The translations under genes and the position numbers were made by a program. A stretch of 64,000 bases of DNA from a virus: IMG/VR virus record IMGVR_UViG_3300025108_000024, positions 28,306-92,305 of that record; one strand, written 5' to 3'. The notes under the pieces were generated by a model, which made no database searches, was not told the origin of the DNA, and saw only the letters and a list, made by a program, of their open reading frames with translations. This document shows, piece after piece, positions 1,890 to 58,150 of this stretch (position 1 is the stretch's first letter; every line of letters starts with the position of its first letter).

Positions 1890-1912
1890 GTCTAAATATT
1901 CTTAAAATTGGT

Positions 1913-4900
1913 TTATTTTTTATTTCTCTTATTGATAAGTGCTTGATTAGATTCAAATGTTTCCATAAGTCTAACGTTTTGCATGAAATCAGCAACTTGC
2001 TGTATGTCAGCTCTTGTAACAGGTTGACCATATCTATCTCCATATGATTGTGGATAAACAACTTTTCTTGTTCCTAAAGTATTTGTTACAAAACCATTTA
2101 CAGCTTTAGGATCATCAGGAGCATATATCTGTTCTTCTATTGAAGTTACATAACTATCTCCGTCTTTCCAAATCTTAAATGAACCAGCTTCTGGTACGTT
2201 TCTATAATAAGAACCTGTAAAGTCTATATCTGTATCAACTGAATTATATGTATATTGACTTTGTCCATACCCACTTACATCTTGATCTGAGTTGACCAAT
2301 ACTGTTACAGTTGAATATAATTCTTTTTCTTGCTTTCCAATTATACCTGTACCTGGTGCATTATCTCCAACTAACCCTACAGATTTATTCATGGCTGTTT
2401 GATCAAATCTAATCACATAAGCACCTTGGCTTTGATCACCACCTTGAGCACCATATGCATCAATATATGTTACAGTAAACAAACCTTTCTTATCATCAGC
2501 CGCTATACCTGCACTTAAATCCATCATACTTTGATTGACCATTTTTTGTGCTTTACTACCAGTTGCTTCTATTCTTTCATTTAAATCATCTTGATCAACA
2601 GTCTTAACATCACCAGCTAAAAACTGAACTCCTCCAGCATTTAATTGACTAATGAAATCACTTAAAACAACTCTCTGTTCTCCCGGCATATTAGCAAGTG
2701 TTTTAGGAGATACTAAACCTGTAGTATATGTATTAGACATAAAAGCAGTTTCATCTGTCATAAGATTAGCTGAACCACCTCTCATCAAAGTATGAATACC
2801 ATATGCTTGATAACCAGGTTCTACATCTTGAGGATTATCTCCTGCTCTTGATTGATCATAATTATAGAATCCATTTAAGGTTCTATTCATTGCATTGTAT
2901 TGTCTTGAGTATGCTTCCTTAGCCGATTCTGTAGCCCACTTTTCATCAAAGTACTGTTTACCAGTAGCATATGCACCACCTCCCATACCTGGACCATAAT
3001 AGATATTAGAATTTGCATACTCCATTCTATAAAAGGTTTCATCTATACGTGTTTTATCTGTAAATTTCTTTTCACGTGCTTTTTCAACTGCTATCTTTAC
3101 ATATTCATCTTCAGTAAGAACTTTATTATCCTTTATTATACTAGGAGCACCATACTCCTCAATGTCTTCAATAATCTCTGGTACACCTGTTGTATTTTTA
3201 AAATTTAACAACTTAGAATAATTCTCAGAAGCTCTTTTATTAAATTCCTTTTCTGCATTTACTATTCTACTTGCTAAACCAGATGTAGTATTTATTTGAT
3301 TTTTTATAACTAACGCATCTCTTGTAGATATACCAGGTGCATATTTTTTTCTATCTTCTTCTGTTGCAAAATTGTTTGATATGGTTTCATACTTAGAATT
3401 TAAAAAAGCTTGATTCTCTGGCTTTCTTAATATTTCTCTTGCTTCATTAATAGTATAAGCTTTGTCACCATTTGGACCCGGTATGTTAATTGTTTCAGGT
3501 TTTCCATTCATACCAAGAGATGCTTGATCTTTTTGATGAAAATATAATAAAGTTTCTATTTGATCATTTCTTACTTTATCTTGAGCATCTCCTAACTCTG
3601 CATTTTTTTGTGCGTAAATATCAGTATCTGCATTTGGATTACCATCTGCATCTGTATTAAATGCTACATTACCTGATAAGCCACCACTAAAATTATCTAA
3701 TGCTTTTTTTATTGCTGGATCAATATAAGCACCAGCTGCCTTTAATTCATTTATTCTATTTAATCTATTCTCCTCTGCTTTAAACGCATTATTCTGAGCA
3801 TCTCTAATCATATTAAGTTTATGTCTTTCTATATCTCTTTGAAAGTCATTTACCATAGGAACTCTTTTGGCTCCTTGCATAGAGTAAGATTTAGCAGCTG
3901 CTCTTAAATCATCACTAATATTCCAATTCATTAAAGAACCATAGGCTCTGTTTAAAAGACTTTCTTCATCCGTAGTAAGTTGTCCCATCTTTTCAACCAA
4001 CTCAGAATTAGCAGTAGCTTGTTCTTCTACTTCTTGTCTCTCAGTCATCACATCTAAATAAGAGTCCTTTTCTATTTGTGTTAGATTTTCTTCTCCTACT
4101 TCTTTTATTCTATTTTCATGCTTTTGTCTAAGCTCATCTAATTCTTTACTCTTTCCTTCAAACTGAAGTTGTAGTTCGTTAGCTTTAAAAGTAATATCAG
4201 AAATTGTGTTCTCAGCCCAAGCAACTCTACCTTCATTGATTGTAGAATATTGCCCAGCTTCAACTCCTCTTTCTGCATGTCTTCTTGCTTGTACGTAACT
4301 ATCTGCAGCATATGCTTGTTGTACTTTACCATTTGTTGCTAAAGCTCTTTTAACTCTATCATATGAAGCATCATATATTAAACTACCATTTGTTTGTTTA
4401 ATAATAAACTTCTTGTCTTTTGTAAAATAAAAATCTTCTGCCTCAATACCTGATTCCTTAAGATAATCTAATGCCATATCATACAGGTTGGCATTAGCTA
4501 CATACTTAGGCATTGGTTTATTCATAGCTTCCTCTGGGCTTGCATTAATAAAATCATCCATTTGATAATTCATATAATCAATACCTGTCTGCCAATATTG
4601 TTGACTAGCTTTTAAATTTGGAGCATCCAATAAACTTTGAGCCCTGCCTAATTCTCCTTTATACTTAGCAGTTCTATATATGTCTTGTTGGATTAGTTTG
4701 TTTTCTATAAATGGATTAAACACACCTTTTGCTGCATCTACATTTTTACCTATAGATAAATCCATATCTGCAATTTTATTAATAGAGGGCACAAGCTTAT
4801 CAGCAAATTGATCTCTCTGTGCTTTAGTGTCTTCTCTACTCATATCGGCATAAATCACACTGCCATATAAATCATTTAATTGCTTGTAGTTGGTATCATA

Positions 4901-20469: not shown

Positions 20470-21702
20470 TTAGATTGCTTGATAGGTTAATTCACAAATG
20501 TTACCCATTATAGGGTGTTGTAGTTCTAGTTTACCGGATCTTCTATTACATACATATTTATTAGAGTAATGATAATAATCCGTTTTACCCAGACTAGGTA
20601 AAGTTTTTTCTATAAAACCTGCTGTTTCATTAGAAGTCATATATTCTACTCTTCTATCTGTATGAATGTGTCCTTTGAATAATGATCTGTTTATAGTAGC
20701 TCCCCATTGTTTGGGGTATTCACTAGCATATATTAAAGGATTATTTTTACTTCTTTTATCTCCGTGTTCAAAAGCGTTAAAGTTATTACCAAATACATGG
20801 ACTTTTCTTTCCTCATATTTAATATCCCAAACTATTTCTTTTGATTTTATAGAGTTAGCTAAAGCATGTACCAAATGAAATGAAGATAATCTGTCATGAT
20901 TTCCAGGTACATATACAATTACTAGTTCCTTACAAAAAGCTTTGATATAATTAATAGCCCAGTGCATAGCATCAAATGCCTGCATATAAGCTTCTGTTGC
21001 AGACATACAGTTATCTAGACCAGTTCCACTTGTTGTTGTACCATCAAATGTGTCCATGTTTATTAAATCACCACCTACAACAAAATACATTTTTTCTATA
21101 TAGTGTGAAGTAACTGCTCTTTGTATAAGATTTTTTACTGTATCTTCAAAGTCTTTATCTATTGTATCATTACCTTCTTTTCCAAAATGAATGTCTTGTA
21201 AAGACATAACACCACATACAAGCTCTCTGTTGCTCTTTTTAATCTTTGATGATGGTATTGTATAAGTCTTAGGCTTCCATCTTTCTAGAAGCTCTTTAAA
21301 TAGTTTTTCCTCTGGATTTTTAACTTGTGATACTAAAGCAGATACTCTCCAGTGATCACCCATTTGTTTATTCCAATACTGAGACAGCTTCCACTTATCA
21401 GTATCTATTTTTAGCAATTGAATTATTTCTTCTGCACTTTTAGGTTCATGATCAAAGGTACCTGATATCTTACCCTCTCCTTTTTCTAAATCTATTGCTT
21501 CTGCTATTTCAGCATTTTTAGATGCTAAACCAAAAAACTTACGTTTTTTTCTATCTTTTTTCCTTTCAGTTTTTCTTTCTTGTAATACTTCTTCTTTAAG
21601 TTTAATGTACTCAGCTTCACTAATACCCAGTCTTTTACTACTGATAGAAGGATGCTTTTTCCATTTTAAACTTTCTTTTACTTTTTGCTTTATGCTTGCC
21701 AT
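20470..21702 (-). CDS. Calcineurin-like metallophosphoesterase with basic N-terminal domain
   Basis: All five motifs present: DIHFG, GGDLI, PGNHD, HGD, GHIH. Confidence 0.85.
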   Translation of the reverse strand: MASIKQKVKESLKWKKHPSISSKRLGISEAEYIKLKEEVLQERKTERKKDRKKRKFFGLASKNAEIAEAIDLEKGEGKISGTFDHEPKSAEEIIQLLKIDTDKWKLSQYWNKQMGDHWRVSALVSQVKNPEEKLFKELLERWKPKTYTIPSSKIKKSNRELVCGVMSLQDIHFGKEGNDTIDKDFEDTVKNLIQRAVTSHYIEKMYFVVGGDLINMDTFDGTTTSGTGLDNCMSATEAYMQAFDAMHWAINYIKAFCKELVIVYVPGNHDRLSSFHLVHALANSIKSKEIVWDIKYEERKVHVFGNNFNAFEHGDKRSKNNPLIYASEYPKQWGATINRSLFKGHIHTDRRVEYMTSNETAGFIEKTLPSLGKTDYYHYSNKYVCNRRSGKLELQHPIMGNICELTYQAI

Positions 21703-21744
21703 AATAAAAATTTAAAGGTTTTCCAAATATATTAAAAATTTTTA

Positions 21745-21814
21745 TAAAAAAAAAGAAGGCCCCCGTAGGGACCTTCTCCAACGTCAGTAGTAGAAAACCA
21801 ACAAACCACTACTT
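21745..21814 (-). ncRNA. Candidate small RNA: 8-bp hairpin with a 12-nt U/G loop, followed by a UACG-capped intrinsic terminator
   Basis: AGTAGTGG-TTTGTTGGTTTT-CTACTACT, then AGAAGGTCCC-TACG-GGGCCTTCT and a T run. Confidence 0.5.
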
Positions 21815-21821
21815 CTTGTTG

Positions 21822-22409
21822 TTAAGCTAATGTACTTACTAAAATTTCTACAGAAGAACATGTTGATGCTCCTGCAATTGCAAGTATTTTAAATTTATAT
21901 TCTGTGTCTGGTAATAGATTAGTTACTTCAAATGTTGTTTCTGTAGGAACTATAACTGCTGTATTTGCTTGAACCCATCCTGTTGGTGTTACAACAGTAT
22001 CAAAATAAATATTAAATCCTGTACTTAAAGAAGATATACCATCCCAAACAATTGTTAGTTTGTTATTATTCACTGCTTCTGAATAAACGTTATATGGTGC
22101 ATGATGTACATTATCTGCAGTACATGCTCCTAAACCGTTAGCAATCATTAAAGCAAATTTTTGTACAATTTGATCTAATCTTTCTCCTGATTGAATTTTT
22201 AATAAACCAGATGCGGTCTCTATTTGAAAAGTACTACCACAATAACTTACACATTCAGTACACTGAACATCATGACACCTTTCATTTCCTGTTGTACATA
22301 AACTGTAACCACAAGGACCAGATGGAGTTACATCTTTGCAACCACATGGTATATTAGAACAACCACAATCATGTTGTTTTATATTGTTATTATCTTCCCT
22401 ATCTCCCAT
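21822..22409 (-). CDS. Cys-rich virion protein with C-terminal fibronectin type III domain
   Basis: Dense Cys cluster at the N-terminus; LTIVWD...FNIYF...VTNLLPDTEYKFKILA FN3 signature. Confidence 0.7.
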   Translation of the reverse strand: MGDREDNNNIKQHDCGCSNIPCGCKDVTPSGPCGYSLCTTGNERCHDVQCTECVSYCGSTFQIETASGLLKIQSGERLDQIVQKFALMIANGLGACTADNVHHAPYNVYSEAVNNNKLTIVWDGISSLSTGFNIYFDTVVTPTGWVQANTAVIVPTETTFEVTNLLPDTEYKFKILAIAGASTCSSVEILVSTLA

Positions 22410-37891: not shown

Positions 37892-38023
37892 TTATTTTTT
37901 TACAGTACTTTTTAAATCTGCTTCATAAGAAGTCTTACATGTTTTATGTACTGTTGCTCCATCTTTAGCCCGTGTTTTTTGACAACCGCACGTAAATGGT
38001 TTTTTACATTTTACACAATTCAT
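37892..38023 (-). CDS. Small zinc-finger-like protein (43 aa, MNCVKCKKPFTCGCQK...HKTC)
   Basis: CxxC, CxC and HxxC motifs; AAACCAA leader; fills the intergenic gap. Confidence 0.7.
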   Translation of the reverse strand: MNCVKCKKPFTCGCQKTRAKDGATVHKTCKTSYEADLKSTVKK

Positions 38024-38041
38024 AGTTTGGTTTATTTATAT

Positions 38042-41215: not shown

Positions 41216-42232
41216 TTATGAGTTCCAATAAGGTTCTACTTTAGATAGTAAACTTAACAATGTATCTTCATTACCTGGATCTTTAAGATATTCAATTACT
41301 TCACCAGATCTTTTACCTAGTTTTTCTGAACTATCCATTGACTCAATCCAACCTGAAGATTTAGGAACTAAGAATCTGTAGTACATAGCATCTTTTACTA
41401 ATGCTCTGATTTTAAGATCTTCCATAGAACTATTAGATGCTTCTAAAAATTGCTTAGATGCTCTTTTTCTATTTCCTTCTGTTCCTTCACCGTTAATGTA
41501 CATATCCATATTTTCGTACATTATGTCATTTGGTGTAGACTTTGTGTATTGAACACTTTCTAAATCTACACACTTTGCAACATACATCAACTTAGTTGTA
41601 TCAGTATCATACATATTTTGTAAAGCAACTAAAGCTTTATTTCTCAGCTTAGTATACTCTGTTCTTTCACTAATGGTTTCTTCTAGTTGGTCTAAATAAA
41701 ACTTTGGTGGATTTACAGCTTTCTTAGCTTCTTTCAATGATTTACCTACCATTGAAAATCCACCTGCATTTATAGCATATATCTTTATAAGATCATATGG
41801 ATCTTTTACAGGATCTAAGAATACTGGATCATTACCACATCTTAGGCTTATTCTTGACCAGAACTTATCATTGTCTGGTTTTAATAATGTTACTTTATTC
41901 CAAAAATCTTTATCTTCAAGATCTATGACATTAGACGCTAATTCAGCTTCTAATTGAGCAACTACTTTTCTTATCTCTTTTACTTTTACTTCTTTATCTC
42001 CTGGAGGTAACATCTTTACATCTGGTGCAAATTCATTTAGTCCAGTAACATATCTTTTAACTCCATTTAGTTCTAGACATGCTAAAGATTCTTCATGCCA
42101 TACTCCTTCATGAAGTGCCATACCATATTGTTCAAGCCCCATGTTTTGTCTGCTTGGGTTAAAGTACGGTCTTACAGCAATAGCATTATTTTTGCCAAGC
42201 TGATATTTTTCTACAATAGTGTAATCACTCAT
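41216..42232 (-). CDS. Conserved capsid-module protein (crAss gene-75 position)
   Basis: Immediately downstream of the major capsid gene, 338 aa. Confidence 0.5.
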   Translation of the reverse strand: MSDYTIVEKYQLGKNNAIAVRPYFNPSRQNMGLEQYGMALHEGVWHEESLACLELNGVKRYVTGLNEFAPDVKMLPPGDKEVKVKEIRKVVAQLEAELASNVIDLEDKDFWNKVTLLKPDNDKFWSRISLRCGNDPVFLDPVKDPYDLIKIYAINAGGFSMVGKSLKEAKKAVNPPKFYLDQLEETISERTEYTKLRNKALVALQNMYDTDTTKLMYVAKCVDLESVQYTKSTPNDIMYENMDMYINGEGTEGNRKRASKQFLEASNSSMEDLKIRALVKDAMYYRFLVPKSSGWIESMDSSEKLGKRSGEVIEYLKDPGNEDTLLSLLSKVEPYWNS

Positions 42233-42375
42233 TTTTTTGGTTTTTAAAAATTAATAATGTTTGTTTTCAACTCAAAAGTAGATATTTATCTACAATTATT
42301 ATTAATATTTCTAAAGCCAGGATTTACCTGACTATAGTTATTTGAGGAGAATAACACTTAACTCACATTAAAAAT

Positions 42376-44096: not shown

Positions 44097-45386
44097 CTAA
44101 AATCTTTTAAATATGTTGTTACTTCTAGGTAACTTTTTCTTGGTAGACTTTTTTCTACCTTCTGTCTCACGCTCTTGTACTCCAAGAGATGATCCTCCAC
44201 TATTGCTTTGTTCAGTCTTTAACTTTCTTACTGTGCTTTCTACACTCTTCTGTGCACCCTTCTCCATTATTCTGGTCTTATAACCATCTGGATCTGATAG
44301 TAACCATAGAGCTTCAGAAATCAATGTATAGTTTGGTTCAACAAACTGATACTTCTCAAGCAAATGACCTAACAAGTTCGTATTTCTTCCACTTACTGAA
44401 GGATAATTTGGTTGAACTAATCCGTTGTATAGCATAGACTGTGTCTTTCTATCAACTTTTAATTCTCCTAAGCTACCTTCTTTAAGAGTATTATATACGT
44501 TCTCCATATATTGCTTTGAAGCTTGTTCTTGCTGTGCCTTGCGCATTTCCTGCTCTTCAAGTTTTTTAGCTAAAACTTTTTCTTGCATCTTATCCAATTT
44601 AGGTTTAAACTTTGAAGCTTGACTTTCAAGCTTACCTAAATCTTTCCAGATTTCAATTTCTTCTGCAATCTCTTCAGCATCACCATATCCTGTAGCTTGT
44701 AGGTAATCTCTGATTATTACTTCTTGATCACTTTCTTTTTTAACATCTAAGCTCTTTTTTTCTTCAGCTTGTGCTAGAGTTGAAAATAATCCTTTTAAAT
44801 CAGTACCACCATCAGCCACATAACGTGCTGCTATTTGGAGTTCTTGCGGCAAACTTTCAAAGAACTGTTTTGGAGTTTCTCTTCTAACTTGGTTTGCCTT
44901 TTCTTCCAAGTTAGCTTCTATTAATTCCTCCCAATCTTTAGCAGAATAATCATCAAAAGATTTGTCATCATCAAAAGGAACAATTTTATCATCTTTTATA
45001 AGCTTGTTAAATACATCACCTATTCCAGAAATTTTCTTTCTTCCTCTTTTAACTTTCTTATCTTCTACTTCATCTGCTTCATCTACTTCTAATGCATCAA
45101 ATATATCATCTGCATCTTCTGTAGTTTTAGCATCATCTGCTTTTTTTTCTTCTGTATCTACTTCAGCTGATGCTTCTGTTTCAACTTCTTTTGTTACTTC
45201 TTTTTCTTCTTCTATTTCAGTAAAAGAAAAATCTGCTTCTTTAGTTGGTTTACTAAATACTGACTTAGGTTTGCTTTCTTCTGGTACTGTTACACTATCT
45301 GCTCCAGCGGCTCCGTCAAAAAGGCTATCTAAATCAATGTTTTCTTGAGTAACTTTACTCTCTACTGTTTTAGTATCTGTTGCCAT
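44097..45386 (-). CDS. Acidic scaffold-like capsid assembly protein (crAss gene-77 position)
   Basis: Very E/D-rich N-terminus, coiled coil, lies between portal and major capsid genes. Confidence 0.6.
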   Translation of the reverse strand: MATDTKTVESKVTQENIDLDSLFDGAAGADSVTVPEESKPKSVFSKPTKEADFSFTEIEEEKEVTKEVETEASAEVDTEEKKADDAKTTEDADDIFDALEVDEADEVEDKKVKRGRKKISGIGDVFNKLIKDDKIVPFDDDKSFDDYSAKDWEELIEANLEEKANQVRRETPKQFFESLPQELQIAARYVADGGTDLKGLFSTLAQAEEKKSLDVKKESDQEVIIRDYLQATGYGDAEEIAEEIEIWKDLGKLESQASKFKPKLDKMQEKVLAKKLEEQEMRKAQQEQASKQYMENVYNTLKEGSLGELKVDRKTQSMLYNGLVQPNYPSVSGRNTNLLGHLLEKYQFVEPNYTLISEALWLLSDPDGYKTRIMEKGAQKSVESTVRKLKTEQSNSGGSSLGVQERETEGRKKSTKKKLPRSNNIFKRF

Positions 45387-45426
45387 TTTATTGTTGGTTT
45401 TTGTAATTGTTAATTCTTACATATAC

Positions 45427-45436
45427 AATATACAAA
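45427..45436 (-). promoter_or_regulatory. Late promoter motif TTTGTATATT
   Basis: Exact copy upstream of the scaffold-capsid operon. Confidence 0.7.
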
Positions 45437-45525
45437 CATTTTTACAAATAAACTTAAGAAATGCATACAACATAAATCATTTTGTGCAGTATATAGCTAT
45501 CTATATTTTTTCTTCTTAATTAAGC

Positions 45526-48293: not shown

Positions 48294-50483
48294 TTATCTA
48301 AAATTTTTATAGGCAGATCTTTTGATCTTTTTCCCGCCAATACTAGTTTTTCCCCTTGCTAAATTTTTAAACGGACTATACTTTAATTTATACAAATTTT
48401 TTGAATTTACCAAAGAATTGTCTGATTCACTTTCTCTTCTTTTCAAATAACCACGGTTTGATTGTTGAATTCTTACAAAAGCAACTAATGCTCCAAAAGC
48501 AACCAACCTATCCACGTTTAAACCAGGGTAGTAAGCAAGCATTTCTTTTAAAAGCATAGGATCTGGTATTCTTTCAATACCTAATGTTGTTGAAATGGTG
48601 TTTCCATCTTGGTCTGTTTCTTCATCTATTTCTTCTCTTAAGAATTCTATAGCATAAGATATTAAATGACTCTTGAATAAAGTACCTGTATTTTTCCATC
48701 CGTATTCTTGATATACAGTTCTGTTAGAACCTAGATCTTTCAGAAAAAGAATTTGTTGTTTTGGCACAAGGTATTTTTGTTTTTTCTTAGCAATCATGTG
48801 CTGAATAAAAAGAGATATGTTATTCTCAACAAGAGTCCATGCGTTAAACCATTCAATAATTAATTCTAACTGACCATGTGTTTTATTTATATCATCATAT
48901 CTACCACACCAAGCAGCTACAATCTTATCTTTTTCTATAAAATGTTCTAAGCCAGCCTGAGTTTCTCTAGAAACTTCCATTGCATTCTTATAAACAAAGA
49001 TACTACATAAGGAATCAGATGTTGTTGTTTTACCTTCTGACACGGGGTCAATAGAAGCATAGTAGGTTCCAAATTGTGGATTTGCAATAGGTCTTTCCCA
49101 AACAACTAAACAACCTGTTTTATCTTGTGCTTTTTTATTAGCAGGAAATTCTGATATAGGTAGCTTATTAGATCTTTTAGCTTCTATACCATCTTGTGTT
49201 CTTTCTAACTCAATGTGTTCATATGCATATTCTTTATCTTCAATTTTCTTCATTTGCTTTGAAATGATACCTTGAGGGAATATAGATTCTTTTCTATAAG
49301 CAAATGCTTCTGCTATGTTAGTTGGTTTTTGAGATATACGTAACTGATATTGTTCTGGATTTAAATCAGCCTTCCATTTTTTTCTTTCTAATGTTATTGC
49401 ATTGAGTGCTTCCTCTATTTTAGAGTTACCGTATGCATCAATATAAGGCGGCATAGACCACTGTTCTGGAATAAACAGACCTGCCATATTAATTGTACCA
49501 TCAGCGTCCATTAGATTTGTTTCTACAGCATATATATCATTTGCTTTAGGATTGAGTATCATTTCCTTTAATGGCTCACATTGATCCAAATCACCAACAG
49601 AACCTGCTGCTATAAACATACCCGTTGTAACCATACCTGAAGACATTGCAGGACGCAAGTACTCATAGGTCTGCATCATCTTTGGTGCTATACCTGCTTC
49701 TTCATGAAAAAAGTAACTTGTTGGTCCACCTACACCAGTTGTTGCATTTTTTTCAAATGAGGCACCTTGTATTTTAGATTTTAAACCTCTAGATGTTTTT
49801 CTATTACCTACTTTGACTTCTATCTGCTGTTGCCATAGTAAAACCTTTTCTGGATTACTGGGCCTATACCACGCAGTGTGCTCATTTAAAAATGTTTTAT
49901 ACTCATCTAAAAACTTCCAGGAACCTTTATCATTTATGTAATCTTTTAGTGATGCACCAATCTTACAAGTACTACCTTCTTCAAACCAGTATGTATTAAT
50001 TATTTTTCCCATGTGAAAATAGGAAGAAGCAATTTGACGTTTTTTTAGTATTGCTGAGTGTTGATAGTTAAGTTCAGCTAACAGTTCATATAATGCCATA
50101 TGATATTGAGCATCTCTTACTTTAGCAAAACCATACTTTTTTTCTTCTTTGTCATATATAGGTAAAAAGTTTAACCACATATAATAATCTCTTGTTAAAT
50201 ACCAAGTGTAAGGACCTTCTTTATAGATGACCCCTACACGGCATTTATCTTTTTGATCATTCCAATATGTTATAAAGTCTTTTGATCTGAAAGGAGCTGA
50301 ACAATAAAAACCATCTTTGTTGAAGTTTCTGGCTTCTTTGTTAAACAGTAAAGCTGATTTAGTAAAGTTATATAGACCGGGTTCTTTAAATATAGATTCT
50401 ATAAATTCATTAAATGAATCTCTAGTTTCAAATTTAGTCACTGTCCAGTTACCATTTTCAAACGTTGGGACTTCTTTAAACAT
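48294..50483 (-). CDS. terL: Terminase large subunit
   Basis: ILKKRQIASSY (Walker A-like), FFHEEAG (Walker B), YASIDP nuclease motif, NVDRL. Confidence 0.93.
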   Translation of the reverse strand: MFKEVPTFENGNWTVTKFETRDSFNEFIESIFKEPGLYNFTKSALLFNKEARNFNKDGFYCSAPFRSKDFITYWNDQKDKCRVGVIYKEGPYTWYLTRDYYMWLNFLPIYDKEEKKYGFAKVRDAQYHMALYELLAELNYQHSAILKKRQIASSYFHMGKIINTYWFEEGSTCKIGASLKDYINDKGSWKFLDEYKTFLNEHTAWYRPSNPEKVLLWQQQIEVKVGNRKTSRGLKSKIQGASFEKNATTGVGGPTSYFFHEEAGIAPKMMQTYEYLRPAMSSGMVTTGMFIAAGSVGDLDQCEPLKEMILNPKANDIYAVETNLMDADGTINMAGLFIPEQWSMPPYIDAYGNSKIEEALNAITLERKKWKADLNPEQYQLRISQKPTNIAEAFAYRKESIFPQGIISKQMKKIEDKEYAYEHIELERTQDGIEAKRSNKLPISEFPANKKAQDKTGCLVVWERPIANPQFGTYYASIDPVSEGKTTTSDSLCSIFVYKNAMEVSRETQAGLEHFIEKDKIVAAWCGRYDDINKTHGQLELIIEWFNAWTLVENNISLFIQHMIAKKKQKYLVPKQQILFLKDLGSNRTVYQEYGWKNTGTLFKSHLISYAIEFLREEIDEETDQDGNTISTTLGIERIPDPMLLKEMLAYYPGLNVDRLVAFGALVAFVRIQQSNRGYLKRRESESDNSLVNSKNLYKLKYSPFKNLARGKTSIGGKKIKRSAYKNFR

Positions 50484-50767
50484 TACTCTATTTCTTTAAT
50501 TATAGCAAACACGTCTCCTGCATTAATTAATAAATGTTTTGATCCATTGTGTTCTACCTCTTGAGGAACAGAATATTCTGCATATTGCACTAAATCATCT
50601 ACAACAATTTCTTGTACTTCTGCACCAACTCCAACAACAAAACCTTTGTATTCTTTCTCTAATGCAGAATCAGGAATTATTATATTAGTACCTGGTACAG
50701 TTCTAACTGCCTCCTTTGGTCTTATTAGAACTTTTTTTCCAACTGGTACAATCTTTGTTTTTTTCAT
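50483..50767 (-). CDS. groES: Co-chaperonin GroES (Cpn10)
   Basis: IVPVGKKVLI...IIIPDSA...G.VVGVG...V.D.V.Y...LLINAGDVFA. Confidence 0.88.
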   Translation of the reverse strand: MKKTKIVPVGKKVLIRPKEAVRTVPGTNIIIPDSALEKEYKGFVVGVGAEVQEIVVDDLVQYAEYSVPQEVEHNGSKHLLINAGDVFAIIKEIE

Positions 50768-50841
50768 CTTTATTATTTTTTGGTTTTAATATTAAGGGTT
50801 CATCCCAATAACAGAATACCCATTCTTGTTTACTACTCATT

Positions 50842-53572: not shown

Positions 53573-54487
53573 TTATAAACTTAAAAGCATATCAATTAAA
53601 CTTGGATGAGGATATGCATCAAACTTATCCTTTCTCACATTAGTATGCGTTAATAATCCTTTTATTTTACCGTAGTATGCATCTTCTTGGAATTCAAATG
53701 CTTTATAAGGTCCAACTTTTTTAATCCACTGTACAAGACCTTCTCTTAAATCAATGTTATCTCTTTCACCCACATACCTTAACCATTTTTCTAACTCAAT
53801 AATTTGTTTGTCTGTATAGTTGTGCCATGTAGTAAATCCTTTAAAAGGTTCTTCCAAAGTACATATTTGTGATTCAAGTGCTCGGCTTCCTTGATATGCT
53901 TTACCATTTTTTAAGTAACCAAAATTGTTAATCTCTATTCCAACTGAATGACGGTTCATAAAACCTGATCCAGTTTTACCTAAGTGCCAACCTTGACATC
54001 CTTCTGGAAATGCTTGTACCATAACACCATCATACTCATCATCACCGTTTGTAATCTTTTGACCACCTAATACAAATTCCGTTGCTACTCGGCCACGTGT
54101 ATCTCTACCCCAATGATCAATTGTTTTATAAGGGTTATTCCAACCTGCTGTATGATGAATAAAAATATAGTCATTAGATATATTTCCTTTTACATACTCA
54201 CCTTTTGGTAAGAAGTATCTATGTATAATTTGACCATAGTTTGTTGTAAAGTGTTGCCCTCTGATGTCTGTATCCTCATCAATTGCTTCTTTCTCTGGAC
54301 CTCTACTTAGTAATAATGTCCAGGTATCATTCCCAACTACACCATCTGGATGTAAGCCTGCACCTAATTGAAACCTTACTACGTATTTTTTTGTAGTAGG
54401 ACCAAAGTCTCCGTCTGCTTTCACACCTAATAGGCGTTGTAGTTTCTTTACGGCTTCTCCTTTTGAGCCAAGACTTATCATTTCCAT
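53573..54487 (-). CDS. Endolysin: PG-binding domain plus N-acetylmuramoyl-L-alanine amidase (Amidase_2)
   Basis: GSKGEAVKKLQRLLG..ADGDFGP.T...FQ...DGVVG..TW; IFIHHTAG, WHLG, SVGIEI, THTNVRKDKFD. Confidence 0.9.
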   Translation of the reverse strand: MEMISLGSKGEAVKKLQRLLGVKADGDFGPTTKKYVVRFQLGAGLHPDGVVGNDTWTLLLSRGPEKEAIDEDTDIRGQHFTTNYGQIIHRYFLPKGEYVKGNISNDYIFIHHTAGWNNPYKTIDHWGRDTRGRVATEFVLGGQKITNGDDEYDGVMVQAFPEGCQGWHLGKTGSGFMNRHSVGIEINNFGYLKNGKAYQGSRALESQICTLEEPFKGFTTWHNYTDKQIIELEKWLRYVGERDNIDLREGLVQWIKKVGPYKAFEFQEDAYYGKIKGLLTHTNVRKDKFDAYPHPSLIDMLLSL

Positions 54488-54783
54488 TATGTGCGTTTTA
54501 GTTTTCTACGAGATTCTTCTTGCTCCATAGCAACTTTGAAGTCTGCTTCTGCACCTTCTTCATCTGTGCTATTGGTTTCATCTGCACCGTATGCTTGAGC
54601 TAAAAACATTTGTGCTTGCACACGTTCTGCTCTTGCCTTCTCAACATCCCTTAATAGTTCTTCATACTCTTTCTGAACTTTAAGATGCTTAATGTTTTCT
54701 TTGTAGAAATTAGTAATCTCTAATCTACGTGCTTGTAGTTCCTCCTTTGAAAGTTGAACTTCTTCTTGATTTTCCTTTGACAT
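54487..54783 (-). CDS. Hypothetical coiled-coil protein
   Basis: 98 aa, helical; AAACCAA leader; TAATG-coupled to the endolysin. Confidence 0.6.
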   Translation of the reverse strand: MSKENQEEVQLSKEELQARRLEITNFYKENIKHLKVQKEYEELLRDVEKARAERVQAQMFLAQAYGADETNSTDEEGAEADFKVAMEQEESRRKLKRT

Positions 54784-54856
54784 TTTATTTGGTTTTAAAT
54801 GTTATTCCAACAAATATAACCAAAAAGTTTAAATAAAAGAAGTTTAACGCACTTAT

Positions 54857-58139: not shown

Positions 58140-58150
58140 AAACCAATTTT

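Follow-up and report, generated by a model that had tools for sequence, protein, structure and literature searches.

Can the 3' end of a phage transcript control, through base-pairing, the translation of other messages of the same phage? This question is raised by a short region on the minus strand of the window, i.e., the whole 64,000-nucleotide stretch of DNA analyzed here, which is part of a 92-kb virus record. In this region, a hairpin with a 12-nt loop is followed by an intrinsic terminator, and the first-pass annotation of the sequence pointed out that the loop is the reverse complement of a motif, AAACCAA, that recurs shortly upstream of the start codons of several genes in the window. 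The locus was accordingly proposed to encode a small RNA that targets a phage-specific leader code, either repressing the respective genes or acting as an adaptor.

Gene context of the hairpin in a crAss-related phage

The gene upstream of this region (21822..22409, minus strand) encodes a Cys-rich protein of 195 aa that contains a fibronectin type III (FN3) domain (Pfam fn3, E = 1e-7); its stop codon, TAA, occupies positions 21824-21822, and the hairpin sits within its 3' UTR. The downstream gene (20470..21702, minus strand), which starts 120 nt past the 195-aa gene and has a promoter-like box of its own (TATATTTGG), encodes an SbcD/Mre11-like DNA repair exonuclease (phrog_704, E = 2e-41) and is the synteny anchor in both clades of relatives described below. 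The phage encodes a crAss-type portal, a capsid protein and a 5054-aa virion RNA polymerase, so that the kinship with Crassvirales assumed in the first-pass annotation holds in the broad sense of a crAss-related phage; however, it is remote from the named Crassvirales. A search of the window DNA against a phage database gave zero matches, and the protein search with the portal found distant isolates only, namely Leptolyngbya phage Lbo-JY46 (34% identity), Cellulophaga phage phi4:1 (26%) and members of Crassvirales (22%). We infer a Bacteroidota host for these phages.

A promoter-like box, UUUGUAUAUUGUAUAUGUAAG or UUUGUAUAUU, recurs ahead of several genes (~45420-45445, 24540, 38610, 39960, 55620, 9880 (minus)). 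Another box, of the host type TAnnTTTG (e.g., TATATTTGG), is located ahead of the exonuclease gene and of a 98-aa gene. These observations suggest two classes of promoters in the genome of this phage.

A hairpin with an invariant loop and a covarying stem

Along the minus strand, the stop codon of the FN3 gene is followed by CAAC, AGUAGUGG, UUUGUUGGUUUU, CUACUACU, GACGUUGG and the terminator, in this order. The seed hairpin (21786..21813), delineated from sequence, fold and covariation, consists of an 8-bp stem that includes one G-U pair and of which 7 bp are conserved, with the arms AGUAGUGG (21813-21806) and CUACUACU (21793-21786) enclosing the 12-nt loop UUUGUUGGUUUU (21794..21805). The terminator (21742..21779, recognized from sequence and fold) comprises a 12-bp GC-rich stem capped by a UACG loop (GGAGAAGGUCCC-UACG-GGGGCCUUCU) and a U-run, and likely forms the 3' end of the RNA, at about position 21742. 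In the minimum free energy (MFE) structure, the hairpin is clamped by an outer helix (21779..21821) in which CAAC (21821-21818) pairs with GUUG (21782-21779). The 96-nt stretch folds as predicted, with an MFE of -32.4 kcal/mol (z = -4.8 compared to 200 shuffles). The stem, the loop and the UACG-capped terminator described after the 21822-22409 gene are real.

Relatives of this locus were fetched via the exonuclease and the FN3 gene, yielding 95 loci (hereinafter clade A). The loop sequence is present in a single copy and at the same position in 92 of these, and alignments of 57 and 52 distinct sequences show no or almost no variation at its 12 positions. The stem does vary (GUAGUGG/CUACUAC, GUGAUGG/CUAUCAC, GUGGCGG/CUGUCAC, GCAAUAA/UUAUUGC and others) in such a way that six of the eight pairs vary on both sides; none of 500 shuffles reached the observed covariation values, and the covariation collapses in slid registers. 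The terminator, likewise, is altered in sequence with its pairing preserved. A covariance model built for clade A finds one strong copy per genome in five of five genomes, and nothing else. G-U pairs are frequent in the stems (e.g., 46 of 57 sequences at one position, and up to 2-3 of the 7-8 pairs in a stem); given that a G-U pair corresponds to A-C on the opposite strand, the hairpin is therefore an RNA of the minus strand rather than a DNA helix. Thus, both the structured RNA with a single-stranded loop ahead of a terminator and the combination of loop conservation with stem covariation, which the first-pass annotation had put forward as a check, are borne out by the clade A loci. In clade A, seed and target may covary in one case: the loop of L183 has an additional U, and the L253 leader reads AAACCAAA.

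The same layout with unrelated stems in a second clade

Scans of IMG/VR with two variant loops used as exact 14-mers returned mostly random low-complexity matches, but one of them, L555, led to a second clade (clade B), which consists of the relatives (59 loci) of a 6-kb contig with a 12-bp hairpin, the loop UUUAGUUGGUUUU, a terminator and then an exonuclease 30% identical to that of the window. All but one of the 59 loci share the layout of hairpin plus terminator upstream of the exonuclease gene. The hairpins of these loci come in 26 distinct versions, the stems of which bear no relation to those of clade A (e.g., AUCCUGU/ACAGGGU, ACUCCAUUG/CGAUGGAGU and AGUCUAUAAUUU/AAAUUGUAGAUU) and have 3-5 kinds of base pair at every one of the six inner positions; the clade A covariance model has no significant matches in clade B. 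The loops always include UUGGUUU, the core that the alignments show to be invariant in both clades, and the commonest complete loop of clade B, UUUGUUGGUUUU, is identical to that of clade A. Across the clades, the loop is 10-13 nt long and U-rich, and is separated from a strong terminator by 6-8 nt. The loop core is the sole feature that selection has held fixed between clades A and B. The more than 80 distinct natural variants of the hairpin stem represent a ready-made covariation set.

In the only clade B locus without a hairpin upstream of the exonuclease gene (L666, record G019), the terminator stands alone, and the leader of the scaffold gene still carries AAAACCAAA; the record is 44% complete, and the hairpin may be located elsewhere.

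Clade A retains CAAC and GUUG(G) on either side of the hairpin, and the outer helix formed by CAAC and GUUG is absent from the clade B hairpins, i.e., is specific to clade A. The conserved 5' flank of the clade A hairpins, CAACAA (21814-21825, minus strand), which is not found in clade B, is complementary both to the loop's 5' half (UUGUUG) and to the 3' flank GUUG, and because of this dual complementarity the clade A RNAs could alternate between a state with the loop free and a pseudoknot that masks it.

A leader motif at Shine-Dalgarno-like spacing

The hexamer AACCAA is present in 8 of the 76 leaders of the window's genome, compared to 0.79 expected, and is the top-ranked hexamer that contains G or C; among the permutations of A4C2, only overlapping pieces of AAAACCAA are over-represented in leaders. 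Across seven genomes, AACCAA occurs in 2.5-12% of the leaders, and the other A4C2 hexamers are at background (0-8). The enrichment of AAACCAA in leaders over background that the first-pass annotation anticipated is therefore genuine. The motif is oriented, with 65 sense and 5 antisense occurrences in leaders as opposed to equal representation of the two orientations in coding sequence, and it is positioned: in 33 of 66 copies, AACCAA ends 5-8 nt before the ATG (p = 1.5e-10), an effect that is seen in each clade separately and fits a preference of the Shine-Dalgarno (SD) type, about 5-9 nt from the start codon, whereas control hexamers show flat spacing. With SD-like 4-mers in just 3-7% of the leaders, the notion of a phage-specific leader motif in SD-poor genomes stands as well. 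The leaders are unstructured, leaving the motif accessible, and the leader variants AAACCAAU, AAACCAACG and AAAUCAA retain pairing with the loop via G-U. The decisive support for a match between loop and leaders above chance is comparative.

The relationship of the motif to promoters differs between the two clades. In the scaffold leaders of clade B, it lies at a fixed distance of 6-8 nt from a promoter-like TTTACA and, because of this fixed distance, may have a role at the transcript start; in clade A, the distance to the promoter-like element ranges from 2 to ~30 nt. AACCAA is also found within operons, without a promoter.

A second leader motif, AACUACAU(U), immediately precedes the ATG of many clade B genes (G015, G011, G013; L732-L749; structural-gene leaders), and often lies downstream of AAACCAA in the arrangement AAACCAA-N3-10-AACUACAUU-AUG. 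This motif has no counterpart in clade A.

Leader sites in the window and their conservation

The one further occurrence of AAAACCAACAA in the window (45401-45391, minus strand) is a leader site located 5 nt ahead of the ATG (45386) of a 429-aa gene (44097-45386) that we denote scaffold-like, a label based only on its position between the portal and the capsid protein and on its acidic composition. This is the 11-nt complement of the loop to which the first-pass annotation had drawn attention, now confirmed, and it forms the best loop/leader duplex (-12.4 kcal/mol). The sequence (A)AAACCAA(C/U) precedes the scaffold-like gene in 80 of 80 fetched relatives while the neighboring leader sequence drifts, and is found also in 5 of 5 more divergent clade A genomes and in 10 of 10 clade B relatives (95 of 95 in total), the protein identity in the ten clade B homologs being 25-28%. 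Two lineages have 2-3 tandem copies of AACCAA before this gene. Tandem copies spaced 7-8 nt apart were observed in the scaffold-like leaders of L121, L122, L130, L133 and L143.

The other sites named in the first-pass annotation are all present as well; they differ in conservation. The AAACCAA (42237..42243, minus strand) that lies 4 nt ahead of the 338-aa gene (41216-42232) located after the capsid gene is found in nearly all clade A relatives fetched and in four of four genomes, and thus, together with the site before 45386, was scored as kept in all relatives. Kept in part are the site (38027..38033, minus strand; gap 3) before a conserved 43-aa Cys-rich ORF (37892-38023), which is present in most relatives and in two of three genomes, and the site (50780..50786, minus strand; gap 12) before a GroES-like gene (50483-50767), which is seen in close relatives only (two of four genomes) and reads AAAUCAA in some. 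The remaining three are lineage-specific: the site before the 98-aa gene (54487-54783; site 54789..54795, minus strand; gap 5) is retained in one of four genomes, with the leader often reading AAAAUCAACA in relatives; and the window scan combined with genome comparison shows no conservation for AAACCAA at 58140..58146 (plus strand), 4 nt before a 42-aa ORF (58151), possibly a chance occurrence, or at 1908..1914 (minus strand), 18 nt ahead of the ATG (1889) of the gene for the 5054-aa virion RNA polymerase, probably a chance occurrence. The leader of the major capsid gene is without the AACCAA motif. The 429-aa and 338-aa proteins have no sequence match in Pfam, PHROG or PDB. The 43-aa ORF (37892-38023, minus strand) is unannotated, has the pattern CxxC...CGC...C and is found in most relatives at 45-75% identity.

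Taken together, these comparisons establish that both elements, the hairpin loop and the leader motif, exist, are conserved, are specific with respect to strand and position, and are complementary to each other.

Host signals and other phages

UUGGUU is missing from 58 of 59 16S rRNA genes that were recovered by a Bacteroidota-type 3'-end pattern (more than 30 of them from Flavobacteriaceae; the sample may not include the host of this phage), the single exception being an unrelated site, and pairing with host 16S rRNA as the reader of the motif was rejected on these grounds. A host-wide leader signal was rejected, too, for one Flavobacterium genome, in the 292 leaders of which AACCAA is an average A4C2 hexamer without enrichment. 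The bS21 gene is absent from the phages examined, which rules out a phage bS21 as the reader.

Among the isolated phages, the Cellulophaga phage phi14:2, a true member of Crassvirales, has AACCAA in 1 of 115 leaders and no hairpin of this kind. In phi4:1, a phage of the same host species, 9 of 180 leaders contain AACCAA, among them those of the capsid-region genes gp064 and gp063; the leader of its helicase gene (L264:8846-8964, record ~92200-92320) contains a candidate 8-bp hairpin with a 17-nt loop, CAUUUGGUUUUCUGGUA, the relatives of which are all at least 99% identical and hence uninformative as to conservation. From these features, phi4:1 may represent a third lineage of the same system. 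A minus-strand candidate for a hairpin plus terminator in phi4:1 was discarded because it is the complement of a plus-strand leader. In Lbo-JY46 (L752:19430-19500), the syntenic place, a 410-nt gap ahead of the exonuclease region, contains a weak, 7-bp, AU-only hairpin with the loop UUUGUUGGUUG and a terminator; the leaders of its scaffold-like gene and of the gene after the capsid gene read AAACAAUAAACAA and AACAACAACAAAAA, without AACCAA. The clade A covariance model has no matches in phi4:1, and none at E <= 0.1 in phi14:2 or Lbo-JY46. The co-occurrence of hairpin and motif across phages is thus not clean, as Lbo-JY46 and phi4:1 illustrate.

Do the loop and the leaders pair?

The reading that we favor, with modest confidence and from sequence comparison, is that the region encodes a trans-acting, base-pairing 3'-end RNA that pairs with leaders of the phage's own messages. 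The core of the loop, which does not vary, is exactly complementary to the only leader motif that is over-represented, and the loop is displayed on a stem ahead of a terminator, similarly to known seed regions. The module is a conserved non-coding RNA at the 3' end of the fiber/FN3 transcription unit, composed of a hairpin of any stem sequence, a U-rich loop of 10-13 nt with a fixed UUGGUUU and an intrinsic terminator, and it would either survive as a terminator-protected 3' fragment or act inside the 3' UTR of the full mRNA. Its loop would pair in trans with (A)AAACCAA in the 5' leaders of several phage mRNAs, the target motif typically ending 5-8 nt upstream of the AUG; the most constant targets would be the 429-aa scaffold-like gene and the 338-aa gene. 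The duplex would then occupy the place where the 30S subunit must bind the unstructured, A-rich leader, and the reduced initiation would tune the head-assembly proteins against the expression of tail and fiber. Occlusion of the initiation region, and hence repression, is the likelier outcome: the 30S subunit should be impeded by a hairpin-borne duplex at -5 to -15, and activation through the opening of an inhibitory leader structure was rejected, the leaders being unstructured. What we infer is that loop and leaders meet as RNAs, that the RNA is stable, and the sign of the effect.

Several observations weigh against this reading. Only 2-4 target leaders are conserved within clade A, and the capsid gene is without the motif; the uneven co-occurrence of hairpin and motif in Lbo-JY46 and phi4:1 and the promoter-like TTTACA in the clade B scaffold leaders count against it as well. 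In the duplex-energy comparison of the loop with the leaders of the window's genome, another of the checks proposed in the first-pass annotation, the leader at 45386 is an outlier but the others are not: in most leaders, only the 7-8 nt AU-rich core pairs, at about -7 kcal/mol, no better than in shuffled leaders (one genome). The UUGGUUU/AACCAA core is invariant on both sides, loop and leader, and outside the core there is no covariation between the two in clade B, where the base that precedes UUGG (G, A or U) has no matching partner in the base that follows AACCAA in the leader of the scaffold gene.

The leading alternative, which we consider unlikely, is that the hairpin binds a protein: the invariant loop would be recognized by an RNA-binding protein of the phage or the host, for instance, to shield the 3' end, to allow processing or to regulate read-through into the exonuclease unit, and the leader motif would be a separate signal, with the complementarity coincidental. 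An invariant loop on a stem of free sequence is typical of protein-bound hairpins, too; the loop flanks do not covary with the leaders; the position between two transcription units is fixed in both clades; and Lbo-JY46 keeps a hairpin-like element without the leader motif. However, the loop 7-mer is exactly complementary to the over-represented leader hexamer/heptamer, a coincidence with a rough chance estimate of <1 in 100 once the search behind the first-pass annotation is allowed for; there is no known candidate protein, and a nut-like function is ill-suited to a 12-nt loop placed directly on a strong terminator.

Somewhat further from what the data favor is a positive adaptor, which we regard as rather improbable. 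Under this scenario, AAACCAA would be a phage-private SD-like element, and the hairpin RNA would be its trans partner that places or stabilizes mRNAs on ribosomes with an unused anti-SD or, in a variant, protects the 5' ends of the motif-bearing mRNAs. The SD-like spacing of 5-8 nt in both clades, the scarcity of SD in genomes where the motif is as common as SD-like 4-mers or commoner, and the absence of its complement from the 16S rRNA genes sampled all agree with such a role, as do the strong conservation and tandem duplication of the motif, which suggest a positive signal, and the leaders, which are without the inhibitory structure that a repressor-independent model would need. Against this, only the loop is conserved between the clades, leaving nothing for docking to the ribosome; the capsid protein, the most abundant late protein, is without the motif; a hairpin-bound duplex at -5 to -15 is expected to clash with the 30S platform; and we know of no precedent. 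A private translation-initiation code, in which the phage supplies the 'anti-SD' in trans and AAACCAA is unreadable by host rRNA, is rather improbable as well.

An element that acts at the DNA level, i.e., a double-stranded AAACCAA/TTGGTTT site or a DNA hairpin to which a phage protein binds both here and at promoters, is very improbable. The occurrence of the motif in both orientations on the genome would be natural for a DNA site, and the fixed distance to the promoter-like box in the clade B scaffold leaders fits it, but in DNA up to 2-3 of the 7-8 stem pairs would be G-T or A-C mismatches, and the motif in leaders is nearly all in the sense orientation, is positioned relative to the ATG, with the promoter-like element at variable distances in clade A, and is present inside operons that have no promoter. 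Finally, an ordinary 3' UTR stem by a terminator, without a sequence-specific role and with the AAACCAA matches stemming from A-rich leaders, in which A-rich hexamers are generally enriched 5-8 times, is hardly credible and already contradicted by the comparative data, considering the invariance of the loop between clades of 25-30% protein identity in which stems and terminators have diverged, the lack of enrichment of composition-matched hexamers and the spacing peak before the ATG.

Novelty and comparison with known systems

The crAss-related phages are abundant in water and gut samples, and the selection of translation starts in Bacteroidota and their phages is poorly understood because SD pairing is not used. 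The finding of a defined, SD-spaced motif proper to the phage rather than the host, and of one conserved phage RNA exactly complementary to it, makes this question testable. If the head-assembly genes are repressed by a base-pairing RNA that comes from the 3' end of the fiber operon, this would be a new way of balancing head and tail production; if, instead, the motif is a private code, phage messages would have their own route to, or gate on, the ribosomes of an SD-blind host. To our knowledge, this would be, if borne out, the first regulatory RNA described for crAss-related phages, the likely host phylum of which, as far as we know, lacks Hfq.

We found no Rfam family and no published description of this hairpin/leader-motif system. 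In the Rfam search of the window, only tRNAs pass the gathering threshold and no family matches the hairpin; the best sub-threshold matches (sbrA, 25 bits compared to 45 needed) reflect the generic shape of a hairpin plus terminator. An antitermination hairpin of the nut/boxB type was ruled out, given the U-rich loop of 10-13 nt instead of a GNRA-like pentaloop and its location 6-8 nt before a strong terminator. What is new is the phage group, the shared leader motif at SD-like spacing as a putative target, and the conservation across clades at 25-30% protein identity.

The closest phage RNA is the c4 antisense RNA of P1/P7, which, through its exposed loops, base-pairs around the ribosome-binding region of a phage gene, the translation of which is thereby blocked; c4 is processed from the transcript that also carries its target and serves immunity by controlling a single operon (icd/ant). 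The element described here is, likewise, phage-encoded, with an exposed loop complementary to the ribosome-binding region of a phage gene, but its putative targets are on separate transcripts tens of kb away, several per genome, and there is no similarity between c4 and this hairpin in sequence or structure. The SD/anti-SD pair is comparable in that an RNA complements a short leader element, rich in purines or in A, with a preferred distance of 5-8 nt to the start codon; here, however, the complement is in a predicted phage transcript and not in the 16S genes sampled.

Other phage-derived sRNAs (OOP, aQ, PAK_P4as15, StxS, DicF and others) are similarly encoded by phage genomes and act by base-pairing, but those covered by a 2025 review (PMC12197685) are cis-antisense or have host genes as targets and come mostly from temperate coliphages or Pseudomonas phages; crAss-related and Bacteroidota phages are not represented in it, nor is any RNA with a shared leader motif as its target. 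The class that the element most resembles in layout is that of the 3'-UTR-derived, terminator-ended base-pairing sRNAs of bacteria (reviewed in PMC9438474). The differences are that the phage element comes from a lytic-type phage, would be aimed at the phage's own genes, and has as its predicted target, instead of diverse sites, a single motif that several leaders share at SD-like spacing. As in that class, a single-stranded seed lies upstream of the mRNA's own intrinsic terminator, directly after the stop codon, and a seed of 7-12 nt is complementary to the ribosome-binding regions of several mRNAs; the phage element combines a conserved seed, a 3' end predicted to be formed by a terminator after a stop codon, and conserved sites at initiation regions.
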